Source: Cenarchaeum sp. (GTDB lineage: Archaea; Thermoproteota; Nitrososphaeria; Nitrososphaerales; Nitrosopumilaceae). Taken from it: DNA of 64,000 bases. Each line of letters begins with the position of its first letter. Position 1 is the first letter of the stretch. The DNA is taken from the NCBI GenBank assembly GCA_965206845.1, contig OZ242221.1, forward strand, positions 448,001 to 512,000, written 5' to 3'. The position numbers were made by a program, and so were the translations under genes. Under the pieces are notes generated by a model, which had not been told where the DNA came from, ran no database searches, and saw only the letters and a program-made list of their open reading frames with translations. Below are positions 38,822 to 46,110 of this stretch, one piece after another.

Positions 38822-38866
38822 GTGTGGAGATCCAGGTGCAAATTATAATAATCTTTGCTCTGGTGG

Positions 38867-40095
38867 GGCTGTGTCCTAGAGACATAACCCCACAATCATC
38901 CGCCGTCGTCGCGTCGGTACGGGTATTCTTCGAATTCTTGGGATTGCGGTATTTTTCCCACATCTCCGGCTTCAAACGCTGTCCGAAACCGTAAAATCCC
39001 ATCCGATCCAAGGGATGGTGCGCAGGCTCCCCTACGGGCGGCGCGGGTGTCTCCGCGCCGGTTATGCAGCCATTGCAGTGAGCGACTCGTGCGTGAGCCT
39101 GCCGCTTTTTACGTGCGATCGCGCGACTACCTCTATGTTGTAACAAATGATCCGGATTGCAACCTCTCGGTTCTGCCGGACGAGCCTCCTGCCCCGGAGG
39201 TGGTTCCCGTACATCTTCTTGATTGCCCCAAAGACGGCTTCGATTATGCTGCGCTGGTGGTACTCTGCCATGAACCTGTCAAGGTCGTCCCTGTGGGTCC
39301 GGGTCATCTCGCCCCAGGCCTGGCTGCCGCCGTTCTTGCAGGTAGTGTTGGATTTGGGCAGGATGCGGGGCGTCATGCCCATGCCGGCTATCGCGTCGCA
39401 TATCAGTCTGGCCAGGTAGGCCGAGTCCAGGCAAAAGTTGCCGTTCCCGTCCGCAAGCCGGTCCAACATGGGCCACATGCCGGTGATGTCGGAGGTGTAT
39501 CCGTCGGTGACGTGATAGTCCAGGATGGCTCTGGTCGCGATATCGATGATGCTGTGAAGCTTGATCCACCCGCGCTTGGTCTTGGCCTGGCTGTGGCGGA
39601 TGCTGAACCAGCGGACGAACCGGTTGCCTGAGTAGCCGGTGCTGTCCCCGGCCAGCGAACCGGCCACGATGTCGCCTGTGATCCTCAGGTGAACCTCGCG
39701 CAGGTACGACTCGGGGATCAGGCCGTAGGCGCGCCATATGGTGCTCTTGGAGGGTATCCCGGACAGTCCGATCCTGCTGACAAGATCCGGGTGCATTCTG
39801 AGGCAGCCCACCGTCTTCCTGTAGGTCTTCATCTCTGCCTCCATCATGATGCAGACAACGGCCATGGCCTTTGGCGGATAGGCGGTCATGCCGCCCAGTC
39901 CAGGTCTGGCTTGGTAGGGGTCACCCATCTCCTTGACGGTGTTCAATATGGTGCTCAGTATCAGGCCCGGCAGGTACTGCTGGACAATATTGAATGGTCG
40001 CTGATCGCGTCTTCCATCTGTCATTGGCGGGGCCGCGATCCGCCGATCAATATACCCTGCTATTTAGAGATGATCTATATCTGTAGGACACAGCC
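38867..40095 (-). mobile_element. Complete IS5-family element; transposase ORF 39062-40024 (320 aa)
   Basis: TIR GGCTGTGTCCTA(G/C)AGA and a perfect 9-bp TSD CTCTGGTGG (38858-38866 and 40096-40104). DDE motifs GDSTG, KLHSII, LDSAY, RSIIEAVF. Confidence 0.95.
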
Positions 40096-40188
40096 CTCTG
40101 GTGGGATCCGATCCGGCAGGACTCTGCACCGCGCAGAATGGCTGCCTTTGGACGCATCTTAAATTGCCGGCATGCGTAATGCCGGCAG

Positions 40189-40544: not shown

Positions 40545-41303
40545 CTACTTTGACCTGTTTACAAAGGCCTTCATGCGCTGTTCCCGATCGGGATGGGTGA
40601 AGCAGTTTCTCCAGGACAGGAGCTCTATTGACAGGCCCGTCTCCAGGTCTGCGTTTCTGCCGTGGTTGATTGCCAGCTTTGACATCTGTACCCCCATGGA
40701 CGAGTTGCGCGCGATGCTGTGGGCCATCTTCAGTGCCGTCTCCTGCAGGGACGCTAGGGGCACCACGTGGTTGACGAGTCCGATCTCCCGGGCCTCGTCT
40801 GCTGCGATCTTTTTGCCCGTGTACACCAGCTCCTTTGCCTTTGCTATACCCACGATCCTCATCAGCCTCTGCGTTCCGCCCCATCCGGGCGGGATGCCGA
40901 TGGTGACCTCGGGCTGGCCCAGCTTTGCCGTGTCTGCCGCTATTCTGATGTCGCAGGACATTGCGACCTCGCAGCCGCCGCCCAGTGCAAACCCGTTCAC
41001 GGCGGCAATCGTCGGCTGCCTTACGGACTCGATTGCGGCGGTAACCCGCTGGCCAAGCCTTGCGTACTCGACTGACTCGTCGGCGGTAATCTCGGACATG
41101 TACGCGATGTCTGCGCCGGCAGAGAACGCCCTTTCGCCTGCGCCTGTCAGTATGATGACCTTGATGTTGTCGTCCCGGCCAATCCTCTCAAAGGTGTCTA
41201 TCAGCTCTAGGGCCACCTCGGTGTTCATTGCGTTGAGCTTGTCCGGACGGTTTATCGTGACTGTGCAGATGCCGTCGGCCTCCGATGTTGTGACTACTGT
41301 CAT
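40545..41303 (-). CDS. Crotonase: 3-hydroxypropionyl-CoA dehydratase/crotonyl-CoA hydratase of the 3HP/4HB cycle
   Basis: [35 protein letters not shown]. Neighbours the ADP-forming CoA ligase, like Nmar_1308/1309 in Nitrosopumilus maritimus. Confidence 0.85.
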
Positions 41304-41356
41304 GAACTAGCCGGAATGTGGCCGACTTAAAGGTGTAACGAAGGGAAATTATATAG

Positions 41357-41818
41357 TTAAGTGAACTGCCGCCGCGGGGCCGGTAAGTTCCGGTGACCTG
41401 CCCAGGGTGGCGGAGTAACCTGGGAATGGATAAGAGAGGAGATCAGGCGGAGCCTTGGCCGCCTTAATGAGGGTCTTCCACTGTTGGCGTCCTCGGCCTC
41501 GATACCGGCGACCTGGGCCAAGGTGGTGTTGTCAGGCAGCCCAAGGTGTGGCCTGACAAAGTTGTGGTAGAGACGTAGCCTGGAGAGGATCGCCGAGTCG
41601 TCTTTCTTGAGGCTGCAGGTGACCTTCTCGCGCTGCCGCAGTGTGTTGCCGTTGAAGGACTCCATCTGGTTGTTGTTCATGGCGCCCGCCGTGTGGATGT
41701 GCCGCTCATACGTAGACTACTTGTGAAGGAAATTCGTGGCCTTGTGCTGCTTGTGGGCGCGCCTGAAGTTGAGTGTCCCATTTGATACCAGCGTCTCCAA
41801 CATGATCTAGGTCACGTC
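41357..41818 (-). pseudogene. IS6/IS240-like DDE transposase, C-terminal remnant
   Basis: TLVSNG (for xxSDG), in-frame stops, HIH.AG.MNNNQMESFNGNTLRQREK, YHNFVRPHLGL..T.AQ.AGI. Confidence 0.75.
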
Positions 41819-42270
41819 AACTTACCAGCCCCGCCGCCGCATGTCCATGGCCTCCCGTTCAGGCAGATCATGCGGTCCGGCAGACCGGTCTTCCCGGTTC
41901 CGGACTGGCCGGCGACTGCCCCGGGTTTTCCGACGCCGGCCGGCATCCCGGGGCAGGCAGGAGCCCGGGAAGGCGGCTGCCAGGCCGCGCCTCTCACGCG
42001 GGCAAACGCCGGATCCGCATGGGGTGCCGTCCCAAACGGTTCCGGCATGCGCAAGGCGGCAGCCGCATGCGAAAGCGGACAAAACCCGTCCTTTTCGGGC
42101 CTTCCGCCATGAGGGCCGTTCCCGCGCGGCGCCGGCTCGGCCCCAGTGGCGGCCGGAAACGCGCGGGCAGGCGCGGCGGAAATGATGGATGTGACAGTGC
42201 GGACGGTCCGCACGGCCGGAGCGGCACCGCCATGTTTCCTTTTATACTCGGCTGGCATTTGCATGCGGTA

Positions 42271-44007
42271 ATGAGACCCGTCATGGCAGAGGCAGAGGCA
42301 GAGGCAGAGACAGCAGCAGCAACGGAGCAGGCGGATGCAACCCCAACAGCGGCATCCGCGGCGCCTCCGGAGCAAAAAAAGAAGTCAGGGCGCGCGAGGG
42401 AAGGCACCACGGTGCGCACCATAAAGGTGAACTTTGACCAGTCGGCCGAGCTGTCGGATCTCATATCCCGCCACATGGACCAGCAGAGGTGGGCATACAA
42501 CATGGCGGTGCGGGAGAAGCTGAAAGACCCGAGGACAACCAAGTTCGACCTCAACAACATGCTCACCAAATGGAGGGACGAGAGGGCGTGGCTCGTCCAT
42601 GACAAGGAGGCGCTGGCCGCGGGACGCAAGGAGGCCTGTGATACCAGGGTGCAGCGGGCCGGCCTCAGGCAGGGCCTCGACGCCGTGGATAAGTTCATGG
42701 CATCCAACGGGAAAAAGCGCCGCAACAAGTCCCTGTGGAAACACCTGGCCAGGCTCTATCGGGAAAGGGAGGGCATTGAGGATATCGACACCGCTCCCAA
42801 CCTGCCGTCCAACAAGTGGAGCATCAAGAGGAACAAATGGACCCGCAGGGACTCCCTGTTCAGCAGAAAGGGCGAGATGAAGTCCCTGACGGTCTTTGAG
42901 AAGCCCGTCTACAAGGGCAACAACATGGTGATGCTCCCCGGCATAGGTACCGTAAAAGTCCACGGCGACGTTGAGGATCTTGATATGCGCTCCTTCCAGC
43001 TCGTCGAGACGACAAAGAGGACCACAAAGCGCACCGAGGACCGCAACAGGACGTACCGGCTCCACATCCAGATCAGGATAAAGGCCCCAGAGCCGCCGGA
43101 ATCCGCGGTTATCAGGGGCGTCGACATGGGCATAGTGCACGGCGCCGCCACGGTGGATCTGGACACGGGCAGCCACGCGTTCCATGACCTCCCAAAGGAC
43201 TGCAGGAGGGCAAAGGATGATGACATATCGAAGATGTACTCCGAGCTCTCACAGAAACGCGGCGGGAGGGGCAACCGCAGGATCAGGCAGGACGCCAATG
43301 AAGGCGCGGATGGCGGAAACAGCGGTAGCGGCAGCAGCAACAACACGAGCGGCCACAACAGGAACAAAACAAGGAAGCCCAAGTCCAGAAGCTACAAGGA
43401 GCTCCAGAGGAAGATCAAGAATAAGCGCGAGAGGCTCGCCAACCGCCAGACCAACTGGGAGCGCCACGCCTCCAAGAGTATAGCGGACGGCGCCGGCACG
43501 GTGGCAATGGAGGACTTGGACCTCGTGAACATGACTGCAAGGGCCAAGGGCAAGGGAAGCTCGGCCAAGACGGGGCTCAACCGCGAGATGGCGTACTCAA
43601 GGCCCGGGACGTTCCAGAGGCTGATCAGGGGCGCCTGCGAGAACGCCGGAGTGGCCGTAATAATGGTGGACCCCAAGGGCACCAGCATCACATGCCACCA
43701 GTGCGGCCACAGGGACGAGAACTCCCGCGCGTCGCAGGCAAGGTTCCGGTGCACCAATGACAGATGTGAGAATGACGTCAACGCGGACATCAATGCCGCG
43801 TATAATATTGCCTCCAAGGCGGAAGCCGTGGCAGCAGGGCGGCCGGGAAGGTCGTCTGAAGGCGCGAGACACCAGCGCGGGATTGCTCCCGCGCGTTCCC
43901 CAGACAGGGCGCGAGAGCCAAGCGCCGGGGGGTTGCAAGAGCGCCAGCAAAAGGCATGGGTGCTGTACACTCATGTATATAATTCCCTAACGAAGGAACT
44001 ACTTTGA
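42271..44007 (+). CDS. tnpB: TnpB-family RNA-guided nuclease (~578 aa)
   Basis: QRWAYN, RuvC-I IRGVDMG, Ruv[25 protein letters not shown]...CTNDRC zinc finger, Ruv[18 protein letters not shown] box TTTTATA ~30 bp upstream of ATG 42271. Confidence 0.92.
43840..43987 (+). ncRNA. Putative TnpB omega-RNA scaffold overlapping the tnpB 3' end
   Basis: Hairpins GCGCGGGA-ttgc-TCCCGCGC (43875-43894), GGCGC..GCGCC and CATGGGTG-ctgta-CACTCATG (43955-43975), located between RuvC-III and the element end. Confidence 0.55.
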
Positions 44008-46110
44008 GAACTTGCCCCACTGGGCAAGTGCTGATGCCGCGGCGGCCCAGTCCCTCAGGTCGTCATACACCGGAACCCCCCTCTCCTCGATCATCTTGGA
44101 GACCTTGTTGGTGTATGGGCCCCCGTTTGCGCCCACCAGGAGCGGCTTCTTCCTGTTGGAGAACTCTGCCAAATAGTCTATGATGACCTCCCCGAGCGGA
44201 TCGTCCTGGAACACGAACCAGGGCATCACGACGTCAACGCCGGAGTCGCCCATGAACGTCTCGATCACAAACCTGTAGTCGTCTGCACTGGCGCCGCCGG
44301 TGACGTCAGCGGGGTTTCCGTTGCCTAGGACATAGGTGGGCGGAAAGTGATCCTTCATGCGCTTGAGGGACTTTGCGCTCACGCGGGCAAGCTTCAGGTT
44401 CAGCCTGTCAAAGTGATCCATGGCGCCGATCATGGGGCCTGCGCCGTTGCTGGTCATGGACACCCTGCTGCCCCTTGCCGGCGGCTGCCATGCCAAGGCT
44501 TTTGCGACTGCGGCCAGTTCCTGGTAGCTGTCAACGGAGATGATTCCCGCCTGCTTGAATGCGCCCATGATTATCGCGTTTGAGCCGCCCAGGGAGCCCG
44601 TATGGGATGCCGCCTGCTTTGCGCCCAGCGCCGTCCTCCCGCTCTTCCATATGACCACGGGCTTGTTCTTCTCCCGCATCACCCTCTTTGCCGTATTGAT
44701 GAACTTGCGGCCGTCGCCGAACCCCTCCACGTACAGGACGATCACCTCGGTCTGCGGATCGCTTGCCAGGTACCAGATCATGTCGGCCTCGTCGACGTCA
44801 GACCGGTTGCCGTAGCTGACCATCTTGGACAGGCCAAACGAGTCTGCGGTCTCGAGGAAGCTGATTCCCATCGTGCCGCTCTGGGAGAGCAGGGCCACAG
44901 GGCCCAGCCTGGAGCGGATCATTCTCTCCTGGCCCTGGAACGCGCAGTCAAGGCGGTTTGCCGCATTGAACATGCCGATGCAGTTTGGGCCGATTATCCG
45001 GATATTGTGCTTCTCTGAGAGGCGCTTTACCTGTGCCTCATAGTCAGCCCTCTTGCCGCCGAGCTCCTTGCCGCCGCCGGACACCACCACCACGTTGTGA
45101 ACCCCCTTCTTTGCACAGTCCTCAAGGACGGGCGGGGTCACTGAGAGGTCGACTGACACCACGACCAGATCCACAGGATCCGGTATGGCGGTAACCGAGG
45201 AATAGCACTTTAGATCGAATATCTTGTCGGCCTTTGGGTTGATCGGGTACACCTTTCCCTTGTAGTCGTAGTTTGCCAGGCTGTCCAGTATCGAGTTTCC
45301 GATCTTTCCCTTGGTGGTAGACGCGCCGACTAGCGCCACCGAGCTTGGCGTGAAGAACTTTTCCATGTGGTCTGCGTTGGGTTTTGCCCGGGAGACGGAG
45401 TTCTTCTTTATCTCCGGGTTCAGTATGATCTTGGCATCAACCACAAAGTGGGATCCCGGATAGACCACCACCGGGTTAAAGTCCACGCTGTTGATATAAT
45501 CTGCATTCTGCATGCCCATCTTTCCTATCCGGACCAGCATCTTTGCTGCCATGTCAAGGTCGATGGGCTCGCTTCCCCGGAATCCCTTGAGAAGTACCGA
45601 GCCCTTCAGCTCGTTTAGCATCGATTTGGCGTCAGAGGCGGTGATCGGAAGCATCCGAAACGCCACGTCCTTCATCACTTCGGTCATGATCCCGCCCATG
45701 CCCACCATGATTACGGGGCCGAACTGGGGATCGTTTTGCAGTCCGACGATGAGCTCGACGCCCTTGGGAACCATCTTCTCCAAAAGGATTCCCTTGACGT
45801 CAACGCCCTTTTGTTTTGAGAGCCTGCCGTACATGTCGTTGAAGGTCTTCTTCACGTCCTGTATCTTGCCTATGCCGACCTTGACTCCGCCGACCTCGGT
45901 CTTGTGCAGGATCTGCGGGGAGACCACCTTCATCACCAGGGGAAAGCCGATCTCCTTGGCCGCCCTTGCGGCCTCTGCCGCAGAGGTAACAAGGGCATAG
46001 GGCGGGACGCTCACGCCGTACTCGCGCAGGATTGACTTTGACAGCTCCTCTGTGATCACCTTGTGATCCGTGTTGATTACATCCTCAAAAATTTCTTTTA
46101 CCTTCGACAT
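43999..46110 (-). CDS. ADP-forming acyl-CoA synthetase, probably 3-hydroxypropionyl-CoA synthetase
   Basis: N-terminal ATP-grasp (HKTEVGGV), CoA-binding domain (VGAS, YPINP, GPNCIG, SQSG) and the phospho-His motif ASHTGSL. Synteny with the crotonase supports the call. Confidence 0.85.

Follow-up and report, generated by a model that had tools for sequence, protein, structure and literature searches.

A tnpB-only transposon with IS1595-type ends in an archaeal genome, and a predicted omega-RNA that runs to its last base

Results

The tnpB gene and the element around it

Positions 41344-43987 of the window, by which we mean the whole 64,000-nucleotide stretch of DNA analysed here, which comes from a sponge-associated archaeon, hold a transposon whose only gene is tnpB and whose ends are imperfect 26-nt inverted repeats. 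The features of the element and its surroundings are the following:

41336..41343: left 8-bp target-site duplication, TAACGAAG
41344..41369, plus strand: left terminal inverted repeat (TIR), GGAAATTATATAGTTAAGTGAACTGC; its first 12 nt are the counterpart of GGGAATTATATA, which is near-invariant in the family
41376..41832: remnant of a second transposon, 457 bp, nested in the element and with inverted ends of its own, GGGGCCGGTAAGTT... (inverted-repeat search)
41833..42239, plus strand: GC-rich non-coding 5' region, in one element subfamily only
42240..42246, plus strand: TATA-like box TTTTATA, 24 nt upstream of the start codon ATG
42271..44007, plus strand: tnpB open reading frame, 578 aa, with an intact RuvC triad (D-E-D) and zinc finger (CxxC..CxxC)
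43962..43987, plus strand: right TIR, comprising the 3' arm of helix 6 (see below) and the invariant TATATAATTCCC
43988..43995: right 8-bp target-site duplication, TAACGAAG
43999-46110, minus strand: acyl-CoA synthetase gene, convergent to tnpB

The encoded protein matches PF07282 with 58.1 bits (cut-off 26.3) and, in phmmer, Cas12f/TnpB structures at E-values of 1.6e-12 to 3.4e-9; many among the 120 relatives listed are annotated with PF01385 and PF07282. The RuvC-III motif lies at about 43780-43815, and residues D285, E414 and D506, together with C475, C478, C494 and C499, are invariant in all 14 aligned proteins and align to Cas12f, with E414 standing 61 residues before C475. Comparison of 10 intact copies (45 pairs) gives a pS of 0.44 and a pN of 0.13 for the body of tnpB, and 0.12-0.13 and 0.14, respectively, for the overlapped tail; the gene is under purifying selection. 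The window copy itself may be impaired, since it has both a frameshifted C-terminal tail and the nested insertion. Namely, a 1-nt deletion near 43926-43930 shifts its last ~19 codons (an RNA-library contig has an extra G behind 43926 relative to the window), so that the stop codon, at 44005-44007, falls outside the element. Other tnpB copies terminate inside the right end, at a TAA that lies at 43980-43982 in the window and is the stop codon in most copies.

The nested relic does not belong to the tnpB element itself. In other copies 41344-41375 is joined directly to about 41832, and an RNA-library contig jumps over 41373-41831. The relic is flanked by an apparent 8-bp repeat, GCCGCCGC, at 41368-41375 and 41833-41840, and encodes, on the minus strand at 41357-41680, a C-terminal piece of a DDE transposase, with which tblastn found weak matches only; no second DNA copy of the relic was found in the genome. 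The 5' region that follows aligns in the window element, E375, E972 and E1075 and partly in E514, and in the whole-element search only three other copies match from query position 532-533. In the alignment, TTTTATA is kept in the window element, E375, E1075 and E1053 and is shifted in E972; we take it to be a putative promoter of a leaderless tnpB mRNA.

Ends and target-site duplication

The inverted-repeat search pairs 41344-41369 with 43962-43987 (26 nt, 77%), the left end beginning at 41344 with GGAAATT, which reads GGGAATT in other copies. A genome-wide end-pair search recovered the same layout in 12 elements of the 1.65-Mb genome, all 12 of them tnpB elements, and each of these inverted-end pairs is flanked by an 8-bp repeat with at most one mismatch (perfect in 10 of the 12). 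Three of the genome's 15 tnpB elements have a poor duplication, with 2, 3 and 7 mismatches. At the right boundary, all 22 right-end BLAST matches end at 43987, and 20 of the 31 non-self whole-element matches end within window 43987-43994, the remaining 11 being internal pieces; the flank past 43987 is unrelated among copies, homology reaching to the final base of the inverted end and no further.

An earlier note on this DNA had counted a 9-nt match at the left junction. An exact 9-mer, TAACGAAGG, does stand on both flanks (41336-41344 and 43988-43996), but the 12-element family comparison gives a duplication of 8 bp, and the ninth shared G is a coincidence or a G>A change at the left end. Taken alone, the 9-mer pair is not above chance (6 matches with at most one mismatch vs 7.8 expected); the evidence for the duplication is its place relative to the inverted ends, along with the family comparison, and not the 9-mer match.

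Seven elements have part of the right end repeated at the left one, in two of them over 161-163 nt. No transposase open reading frame is present in any of the genome's 15 tnpB elements, which are for this reason non-autonomous; the window element is a non-autonomous IS1595-type DNA transposon.

A candidate IS1595-type partner

IS1595 members usually make 8-bp duplications and have ends starting with GG, according to the account in PMC8101967, and the window element has both traits. The genome carries one intact IS1595 transposase gene (genome 27527-28465; PF12762 at E 1e-34, NF033547 at 160 bits), and an end 41 nt upstream of it matches the element end at 20 of 26 positions. Genome-wide, 36 sites reach 18 of 26, and 33 of them are tnpB-element ends or fragments of such ends, the other three being the intact IS1595 gene's end, a decayed IS1595 copy and one orphan end. 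The intact gene has a single recognisable end, which is diverged, and in the closed genome no autonomous element was found that has a matching end at both of its termini. The exact GGGAATTATATAC is present in an end that has a decayed IS1595 fragment 63 nt further in. In a related genome, G018, IS1595 copies begin with the same 13-mer, the end lying about 60 nt before the gene in L085 and L087, and contig C69 has, in order, an end, IS1595 transposase pieces, a tnpB half and an end (composite in L091). Sequence comparison identifies the element's ends as belonging to a DDE transposon of the IS1595 family, an assignment newly made here, and mobilisation would come from an IS1595 transposase encoded elsewhere in the genome.

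Two families were considered for the element and rejected. For IS200/IS605, including the tnpB-only IS1341 group, near-invariant 12-nt inverted ends and 8-bp duplications are present here, and the Y1 HUH TnpA profile PF01797, which as a control has matches in 6 of 14 genomes, has none in this 99.99%-complete single-contig genome. For IS607, the serine recombinase profile PF00239 has no match in the genome, and both TIR and duplication are present. Profile searches of the genome also returned no IS6, IS256, ISL3 or Cas1.

A structured module in the last 150 nucleotides

The earlier note had seen several hairpins after RuvC-III, the last of them formed by CATGGGTG and CACTCATG, with its 3' arm inside the right TIR. 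Folding bears this out: six helices are found in 43836-43987, RNAfold recovers the last hairpin as listed below, and its 3' arm does lie within the right arm of the inverted repeat.

43836..43987, plus strand: predicted omega-RNA scaffold, six helices (last ~150 nt, from fold and covariation)
43837-43844 / 43850-43857, plus strand: helix 1, loop GGGAA at 43845-43849
43861-43865 / 43941-43945, plus strand: helix 2
43875-43882 / 43887-43894, plus strand: helix 3
43898-43901 / 43927-43930, plus strand: helix 4
43908-43912 / 43922-43926, plus strand: helix 5
43954-43962 / 43968-43976, plus strand: helix 6
43977-43987, plus strand: single-stranded tail, AUAUAAUUCCC

The single sequence folds at -67 kcal/mol, with z-scores of -2.11 on the plus strand and -1.9 on the minus strand. 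Applied to 17 copies, RNAalifold predicts 37 base pairs, which make up the six helices, and 97.4% of 625 alignment cells pair, compared with 36-51% when the partners are slid. Two-sided changes occur in 12 pairs and 48 cells, a level reached by 0 of 500 shuffles. In particular, helices 1, 3 and 5, which stand 60-150 nt away from the end and, in most copies, beyond the inverted repeat, show compensatory changes, and the invariant G-U pairs of helices 1 and 6 speak for an RNA of the sense strand. The covariance model finds 30 genomic sites, and in its 17 training copies the module extends as far as the element's last base, with unrelated flanks, just as the earlier note had anticipated for a scaffold conserved up to 43987 and variable afterwards. 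In G018, which belongs to another genus, the model finds 9 sites, at least 6 of them on contigs with tnpB matches, and the module is kept beside tnpB there; copies L032, L039 and L091 retain the GGGAA loop and the terminal TTCCC and differ in the middle. The GGGA of the helix 1 loop and the terminal TCCC are invariant in all 17 copies and mutually complementary; a pseudoknot between the terminal UCCC and this loop is possible, as judged from invariant bases and not from covariation. RNA-library contigs from two studies, which as contigs give no RNA ends, strand or level, cover 43771-43987, and one of 166 nt consists of 43841-43987 plus 18 unlike letters (run X1, only guessed to be RNA).

As read from the alignments, the last ~150 nt are a structured, covarying RNA-like module that overlaps the 3' end of tnpB, and, running to the element's last base, this module takes in the right inverted end. 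The transposase may be another reason for the conservation of helix 6 and its neighbours, since they are repeated as inverted-repeat DNA in seven elements. The idea that the TIR serves both as transposase site and as RNA scaffold, also put forward in the earlier note, fits the fact that the terminal 12 nt are common to IS1595 transposase-bearing copies.

The base before the duplication and a candidate guide

Two further features follow from comparing the flanks and from the scaffold boundary:

41335..41335, plus strand: G just 5' of the left duplication, candidate minimal TAM
43988..44007, plus strand: predicted guide, the 8-nt duplication and about 12 nt of flank (length assumed)

All 15 tnpB elements have G at -1 (genome G frequency 0.285, P about 7e-9), as does one further copy, in an RNA-library contig. 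Nothing is conserved at the mirror position, right +1 (five G, five C, three A and two T in the 15 elements), and at -2 no element has A; the suggestion of AGGTG as a five-base TAM falls, the left-flank comparison of the 15 elements showing conservation of G(-1) only, with A absent from -2. The duplications are AT-rich and differ at every site, and only their first position is conserved, as a pyrimidine in 15 of 15 (T in 12, C in 3). An invariant, asymmetric G(-1) fits a guide that would start with the duplication and a minimal TAM before it. The position of this guide is predicted from the scaffold boundary, with the 18 unlike letters of the 166-nt contig as a hint; starting TAACGAAGGAACTAC..., it would overlap the 3' end of the acyl-CoA synthetase gene. 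TAMs listed for IS200/IS605 in a review have 4-5 nt, and one of a single base would be much shorter.

Discussion

From these observations we infer guide use of the duplication, a TAM, cleavage, homing, the acting transposase and the RNA ends, and we think it reasonably probable that the locus is, as a whole, a tnpB element mobilised by IS1595, with an omega-RNA embedded in its end, a guide starting with the duplication, a G(-1) TAM, and homing. Namely, an IS1595-family DDE transposase from elsewhere, for which the gene at genome 27527-28465 is the candidate, would mobilise the element. Transcription of tnpB would start from the TATA box at 42240 and cross the right end, and the last ~150 nt of the transcript up to 43987 would form the six-helix scaffold, whose final 12 nt, UAUAUAAUUCCC, would be transposase recognition sequence and tnpB stop codon in one and probably also one pseudoknot strand, UCCC pairing with the GGGA loop of helix 1. 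The sequence after 43987, that is, duplication and flank (TAACGAAG GAACTAC...), would be the guide; it would match the unoccupied or precisely excised allele, in which the G 5' of the duplication would be the minimal TAM. Since the occupied right junction has C at the place of the TAM, and the occupied left junction matches the guide for 8 nt only, the element would spare itself. Cleavage of the empty allele and repair from the occupied copy would then keep the element in place. It is a more tentative suggestion, about which we have some doubt, that this archaeal TnpB has become fitted to an IS1595 transposon in all these respects, with the terminal 12 nt as RNA tail and pseudoknot strand, the variable 8-nt duplication as seed and a single-G TAM, and with the G filtering which insertions persist.

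Could the G belong to the transposase and not to the nuclease? The omega-RNA in the inverted end would then be real, and G(-1) would be an IS1595 target preference, or chance together with shared site ancestry. The AT-rich duplications, with a pyrimidine start at every site, are a clear preference on the transposase side, and G(-1) may be another, since it is also found at IS1595-only ends of this genome: the decayed end at genome 1467226 has it, and so does the intact gene's end if aligned as GGGG, which is ambiguous. That said, a DDE transposase working on two like ends would be expected to leave symmetry, and C stands at right +1 in only 5 of 15 elements; the asymmetry stays even in the seven elements whose ends are alike over at least 45 nt. 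What is more, none of the six left ends of IS1595-only copies in G018 and G016 carries G at -1 (the bases are A, C, T, T, T and A), although base composition bears on this comparison, the G018 contigs examined having 46-48% G+C vs 57% in this genome. We consider this explanation unlikely, if still deserving of serious weight. A Fanzor-like arrangement, in which the 3' duplication would lie in the scaffold, the 5' duplication would be the TAM and the guide would start from about 43996, has its precedent in Fanzor1 and Fanzor2*, for which it is described, with RNAs reaching ~15 nt past the duplication, in PMC10711439 and PMC13565253. Here it is improbable: a duplication that varies at every site can be neither a TAM read by the protein nor a fixed piece of scaffold, and the conserved base is outside it, at -1.

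It is quite improbable, in our view, that the hairpins are features of the DNA or mRNA, be it transposase binding sites or a 3' stabiliser or terminator. Parts of the module are indeed inverted at the left end of seven elements, and the single-sequence fold is modest against shuffles on either strand. However, compensatory changes in helices 1, 3 and 5 go beyond most copies' inverted repeat, the invariant G-U pairs are strand-specific, the module is kept beside tnpB in another genus, and the layout, overlapping the tnpB 3' end and ending at the transposon boundary, is the one reported for TnpB RNAs. Finally, the scaffold might end before the terminal 12 nt, so that the fixed UAUAUAAUUCCC would start the guide and TnpB would cut the ends and aid excision, a role to which the lack, in the closed genome, of an autonomous element with two matching ends, and the mostly G base before TATATAATTCCC in right ends, would lend themselves. 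At each copy, though, such a guide would find a match in the very DNA it is transcribed from; the G in question pairs with an invariant C in helix 6, UCCC complements the invariant GGGA loop as a scaffold would, and mobility is explained by IS1595 copies with the same end. We hold this to be highly improbable.

If homing with a guide that starts in the duplication is indeed what happens here, the element would show an RNA-guided homing nuclease serving a DDE transposon with long, variable target duplications, a combination that a 2026 review considers uncommon and ill suited in prokaryotes. IS1595 would join the transposases with which TnpB travels, and one 12-nt sequence would be transposase site, stop codon and RNA scaffold at once. 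The solution would differ from that of the Fanzors and involve a nuclease with an unusually relaxed TAM, and a one-base-TAM TnpB would be of interest to genome editing. The 15 natural copies, which have diverged, and the DNA around them are a ready test set.

Comparison with known systems

The protein resembles the TnpB of IS200/IS605 (e.g. ISDra2) in its PF01385/PF07282 domains, D-E-D RuvC triad and zinc finger, and the predicted RNA does so in overlapping the tnpB 3' end, in a scaffold that stops at the boundary and in a guide taken from the flank, as reported for that family; the logic by which cutting of the empty site retains the element would likewise be common to both. Unlike in IS200/IS605, the genome is without Y1 TnpA, the protein is longer (578 aa), there are inverted ends and an 8-bp duplication, both of which that family lacks according to a review, and the candidate TAM is a single base, separated from the element by a variable, duplicated 8-mer that would belong to the guide. 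Closer in architecture are the DDE-associated TnpB branches of Altae-Tran et al. 2023 (PMC10691335), which are described as prokaryotic TnpBs flanked by inverted terminal repeats, the 3' end of tnpB lying within 250 bp of the transposon end, and with solo TnpBs between the ends of transposase-bearing relatives. The main text of that paper and the 2026 review name IS630, ISL2 and IS1031, and not IS1595 (six DDE branches are listed in the supplements, and the element may belong to one of them), and RNA structure, duplication as guide and TAM analysis are not described for these branches in the passages considered here.

With the TIR/TSD transposons of Fanzor1 and Fanzor2* the element shares a guide-RNA scaffold, predicted here, that includes the TIR and the existence of non-autonomous, nuclease-only elements, as presented in PMC10711439 and PMC10530073, and the candidate pseudoknot would parallel that reported for Fanzor2 and TnpB, between pre-guide bases and a distant part of the scaffold. 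In contrast to Fanzor, the host is archaeal rather than eukaryotic or viral, the Glu is canonical (E414) instead of lying 6 residues before the zinc finger, as a review gives it, and the duplication is a variable one of 8 bp, not a short fixed one described as being read as TAM and scaffold. With IS1595 elements, as described in the literature cited above, it has in common the 8-bp duplication, the GG ends and an identical terminal 13-mer beside IS1595 transposase genes; it differs from them in travelling without a transposase, its passengers being tnpB and the RNA module.

Element ends and target-site duplication

The genome around the window is closed and archaeal (1.65 Mb, 57% G+C), and RNA libraries in public archives that overlap the window in part are labelled as sponge metagenomes. 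The gene and the ends of the element are the following:

41344-41369 / 43962-43987: inverted arms of the element, 26 nt, 77%, from a repeat search
42271-44007, + strand: tnpB ORF, 578 aa; Cas12f1-like TNB domain, 58.1 bits against a cut-off of 26.3

The RuvC and zinc-ribbon half of the ORF aligns to Cas12f and TnpB structures with E values from 1.6e-12 to 3.4e-9, many of the 120 relatives listed carry PF01385 and PF07282, and the D285, E414 and D506 triad is invariant, together with four zinc-finger cysteines, in 14/14 aligned family members. Judged by its sequence, the ORF encodes a TnpB whose active site is intact, and its body, with pS of 0.44 and pN of 0.13 over 45 pairs of 10 copies, shows purifying selection. 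The frame terminates in most copies at the TAA within TATATAATTCCC; that of the window copy extends 20 nt into the flank because of a 1-nt deletion near 43926-43930, visible in the right-end alignment and also from RNA-library contigs.

The flanking duplication proposed in the earlier note is present, but its length is 8 bp and not 9. Namely, TAACGAAGG is found at both 41336-41344 and 43988-43996, a 9-mer pair that by itself is not beyond chance (6 near-matches against 7.8 expected), and it is comparison across the family that makes the case for the predicted duplication. Apart from the window copy, 31 stretches of the genome match the element at 70-94% DNA identity, and of these 20 end at window 43987-43994, the other 11 being internal fragments; when the last 188 nt serve as BLAST query, 22/22 matches end at 43987. 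The terminal GGGAATTATATA is near-invariant at left and right ends. What is more, a genome-wide search for inverted 12-mers with at most 3 mismatches, 150-6000 bp apart and flanked by an 8-bp repeat with at most 1 mismatch, returned 12 pairs, all 12 of them tnpB elements and 10 with perfect repeats, so that the duplication is 8 bp long. The left end of the window copy therefore starts at 41344 and carries a G>A change. Although the copies are 18-26% apart in DNA, 10/12 duplications are perfect, from which we infer that each element lineage probably moved more recently than the lineages split. One full element (G000:C1:1075256-1077418, on the contig that holds the window) has no duplication, mismatching at 7/8 positions, which recombination between copies would explain, and an orphan end, GGGAATTATATATTTAAGTTCAC, lies at G000:C1:976525 with neither tnpB nor a transposase inward of it.

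In 400 other genomes of the same family, no close relative was found at E up to 1e-40, and all 28 loci from a metagenome scan were distant (25-50% identity); the set of insertion sites is therefore confined to this genome. A protein scan of genome contigs gave no match, and the tnpB elements of a related genome, G018, are mostly cut off at contig ends and yielded no further clean left flanks. A distant 388-aa tnpB from another genus (L040:1376-2623, on contig C49 of genome G008) lies between different 26-nt inverted ends (81%), and its ORF likewise terminates inside the inverted end.

Upstream region and nested relic

Between the left end and the gene lie two further features:

41376-41832: nested relic, 457 bp, bounded by inverted ends of its own; an 8-bp repeat, GCCGCCGC, is apparent but uncertain given its GCC-repeat context
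41833-42239: region of 400 nt, rich in GC, that precedes the tnpB promoter in one subfamily only, with visible conserved stems

Since other copies, and likewise one RNA-library contig, join 41344-41375 straight to about 41832, the intervening segment is a nested relic of another transposon. It holds a C-terminal fragment of a DDE transposase, a protein with weak relatives only; the genome contains no other DNA copy of it and no match to PF13610. The GC-rich region is covered over 41838-42088 by contigs of 207-252 nt with 1-3 differences, from three RNA libraries of one study, and could be a second RNA. As a guide RNA it was rejected, being confined to one subfamily.

A probable partner transposase of the IS1595 type

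The genome contains no Y1 TnpA or serine recombinase, and no IS6, IS256, ISL3 or Cas1 genes. It is very repeat-rich, with 138 repeated intervals of at least 300 bp in 1.65 Mb, including IS630, IS110, rve and several DDE_Tnp_1/4 families; one DDE_Tnp_1 insertion sequence lies in the window itself at 38866-40096 (320-aa transposase, ends GGCTGTGTCC..., about 13 genome copies, 9-bp duplications). The two abundant DDE_Tnp_1 families are rejected as partner, as they make 9-bp duplications and have different ends. The 348-aa DDE_Tnp_1 ORF of another tnpB element, E870, is ruled out as an autonomous partner as well: it belongs to an IS of 1.2 kb nested in the element, of which 6 further copies (95-98% identity) are present. 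The candidate partner is

genome 27527-28465: the sole intact IS1595-family transposase in the genome, PF12762 E 1e-34, NF033547 160 bits

At 41 nt upstream of this gene, 20/26 positions match the tnpB-element end. Genome sites reaching 18/26 of that end number 36; 33 are tnpB-element ends or fragments of them, and the other three are the end at the intact IS1595 gene, a decayed IS1595 copy and one orphan end. The decayed fragment spans residues 5-139 at 62% identity, has two stops and is truncated by another IS; it sits 63 nt inside an orphan end with an exact GGGAATTATATAC. The IS1595 copies of G018 (59% identity) open with this 13-mer too, some 60 nt ahead of the gene. On contig C69 of that genome, GGGAATTAT... 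is followed by pieces of an IS1595 transposase, then by the C-terminal half of a tnpB and by the RNA module, and ...GTATAATTCCC closes the series. Exact 9-mer matches in two loci, L043 and L061, look like chance. Members of IS1595 are usually flanked by 8-bp duplications (PMC8101967). Taken together, the ends common to the IS1595 copies, the composite on C69 and the 8-bp duplications identify the tnpB elements as non-autonomous IS1595-type transposons. No second end was recognised around the intact IS1595 gene, which may be one-ended or domesticated; the stretch downstream of it (G000:C1:27100-27527) has the motif CACTTTTGAAC three times and no second inverted end.

The predicted omega-RNA

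RNAfold gives -67 kcal/mol for 43836-43987 (z -2.11), with a last helix at 43954-43962 / 43968-43976. The inner part of the right inverted end (43962-43987) thus does supply the 3' arm of that hairpin, as claimed, and the expectation that the scaffold be conserved to 43987 and variable afterwards is borne out as well. Namely, in an alignment of 17 right ends, columns are conserved through the final CCC and unrelated beyond it, and a covariance model built on this alignment agrees: it returns 30 genome sites, and each of the 17 training copies ends exactly at the end of its element. It also finds 9 sites in G018, at least 6 of them on contigs with tnpB matches, and none in the related genomes G001, G008 and G016. 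Two copies were found by the covariance model only:

G000:C1:1583621-1583778: decayed solo RNA-module copy without tnpB
G000:C1:1577663-1577825: decayed solo RNA-module copy without tnpB

On the 17 right ends, RNAalifold predicts six helices with 37 pairs. Standard pairs occupy 97.4% of 625 cells, against 36-51% with partners slid by 1-3 columns; changes on both sides occur in 12 pairs (48 cells); and the observed pairing, double-change and covariation values were reached by 0/500 shuffles. The compensatory changes fall in helices 1, 3, 5 and 6 and are therefore not limited to the inverted repeat. G-U pairs, possible on the sense strand only, are invariant or frequent in helices 1 and 6. In addition, pS falls to 0.12-0.13 in the tnpB tail that overlaps the module, with pN still at 0.14, a pattern characteristic of a second constraint, one not on the protein.

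The helix-1 loop GGGA and the terminal UCCC are invariant in 17/17 copies, a GGGAA loop and terminal TTCCC being kept in three G018 copies with a differing middle (L032, L039, L091). The two could form a pseudoknot, for which covariation is uninformative, the bases being invariant. In a characterised TnpB RNA, a pseudoknot links the bases directly before the guide to a site some 130 nt upstream (PMC10711439). A search of 41300-44100 against Rfam 15, with E up to 5, gave chance-level matches alone and none at gathering score.

Logan contigs of sponge metatranscriptomes (runs X5 and X7), and of run X1, which is RNA only by guess, cover 43771-43987; one contig of 166 nt equals 43841-43987 followed by 18 unlike letters, and two high-depth contigs depart at 43924 and 43960 into unlike sequence. 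In run X2, 43724-44026 is without cover. This coverage is a hint of expression and no more, as contigs cannot show RNA ends or levels, and the word depth, though higher for 3' contigs of X5, X7 and X1, is unusable as an expression measure.

Predicted guide and candidate TAM

Because the scaffold ends at the last base of the element, the right-hand duplication would form the start of the guide, and in the empty allele the left flank would precede the target of this duplication-derived guide. The AGGTG suggested as TAM is not conserved as a motif: the base directly 5' of the left duplication is G in 15/15 elements (genome G frequency 0.285), but position -2 is A in 0/15. A further copy in an RNA contig has ...TG before its 8-mer. 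At the mirror position, right +1, the counts are G5 C5 A3 T2, and the asymmetry persists in seven elements with ends alike for at least 45 nt. In two elements, the left end bears the RNA module a second time, nearly complete and inverted:

G000:C1:1188043-1189924: tnpB element, inverted module copy of 163 nt, 136 bits
G000:C1:1049606-1051551: tnpB element, inverted module copy of 161 nt, 88 bits

Right +1 is C in both, which would be the G of a second guide read outward from the inverted module copy; with two cases, this is only a hint.

We give about an even chance to the view that the G at -1 is a minimal TAM or filters which insertions survive. The main rival is that it reflects a preference of the transposase. 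At position -1, six left ends of IS1595-only copies from G018 and G016 read A, C, T, T, T and A, the G018 contigs compared having 46-48% G+C. In the present genome, with its 57% G+C, the decayed IS1595 end has G at -1. Of the interpretation in the earlier note, the RNA module is well supported, and so is its merging with the inverted end; use of the duplication as guide and the TAM are inferred.

Comparison with known systems

The literature searched contained no TnpB with an IS1595 partner, papers naming both being unrelated to such a link by title and abstract, although the supplements of PMC10691335, outside the search, may already list the clade. It likewise held no TnpB tied to Thaumarchaeota of sponges, no archaeal family of DDE-associated TnpB of this kind, no variable 8-nt duplication as guide seed and no one-base TAM. 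That TnpB RNAs may end at the transposon boundary is already established. Also established are TnpBs of prokaryotes that lie next to DDE transposases between inverted repeats (PMC10691335) and Fanzor RNAs that incorporate the inverted repeat (PMC10530073, PMC10711439). In Fanzor systems, however, TAM and scaffold both make use of the duplication, whereas in the present family it is variable at every site except for the first base, a pyrimidine, and the Fanzor solution is excluded here for this reason.
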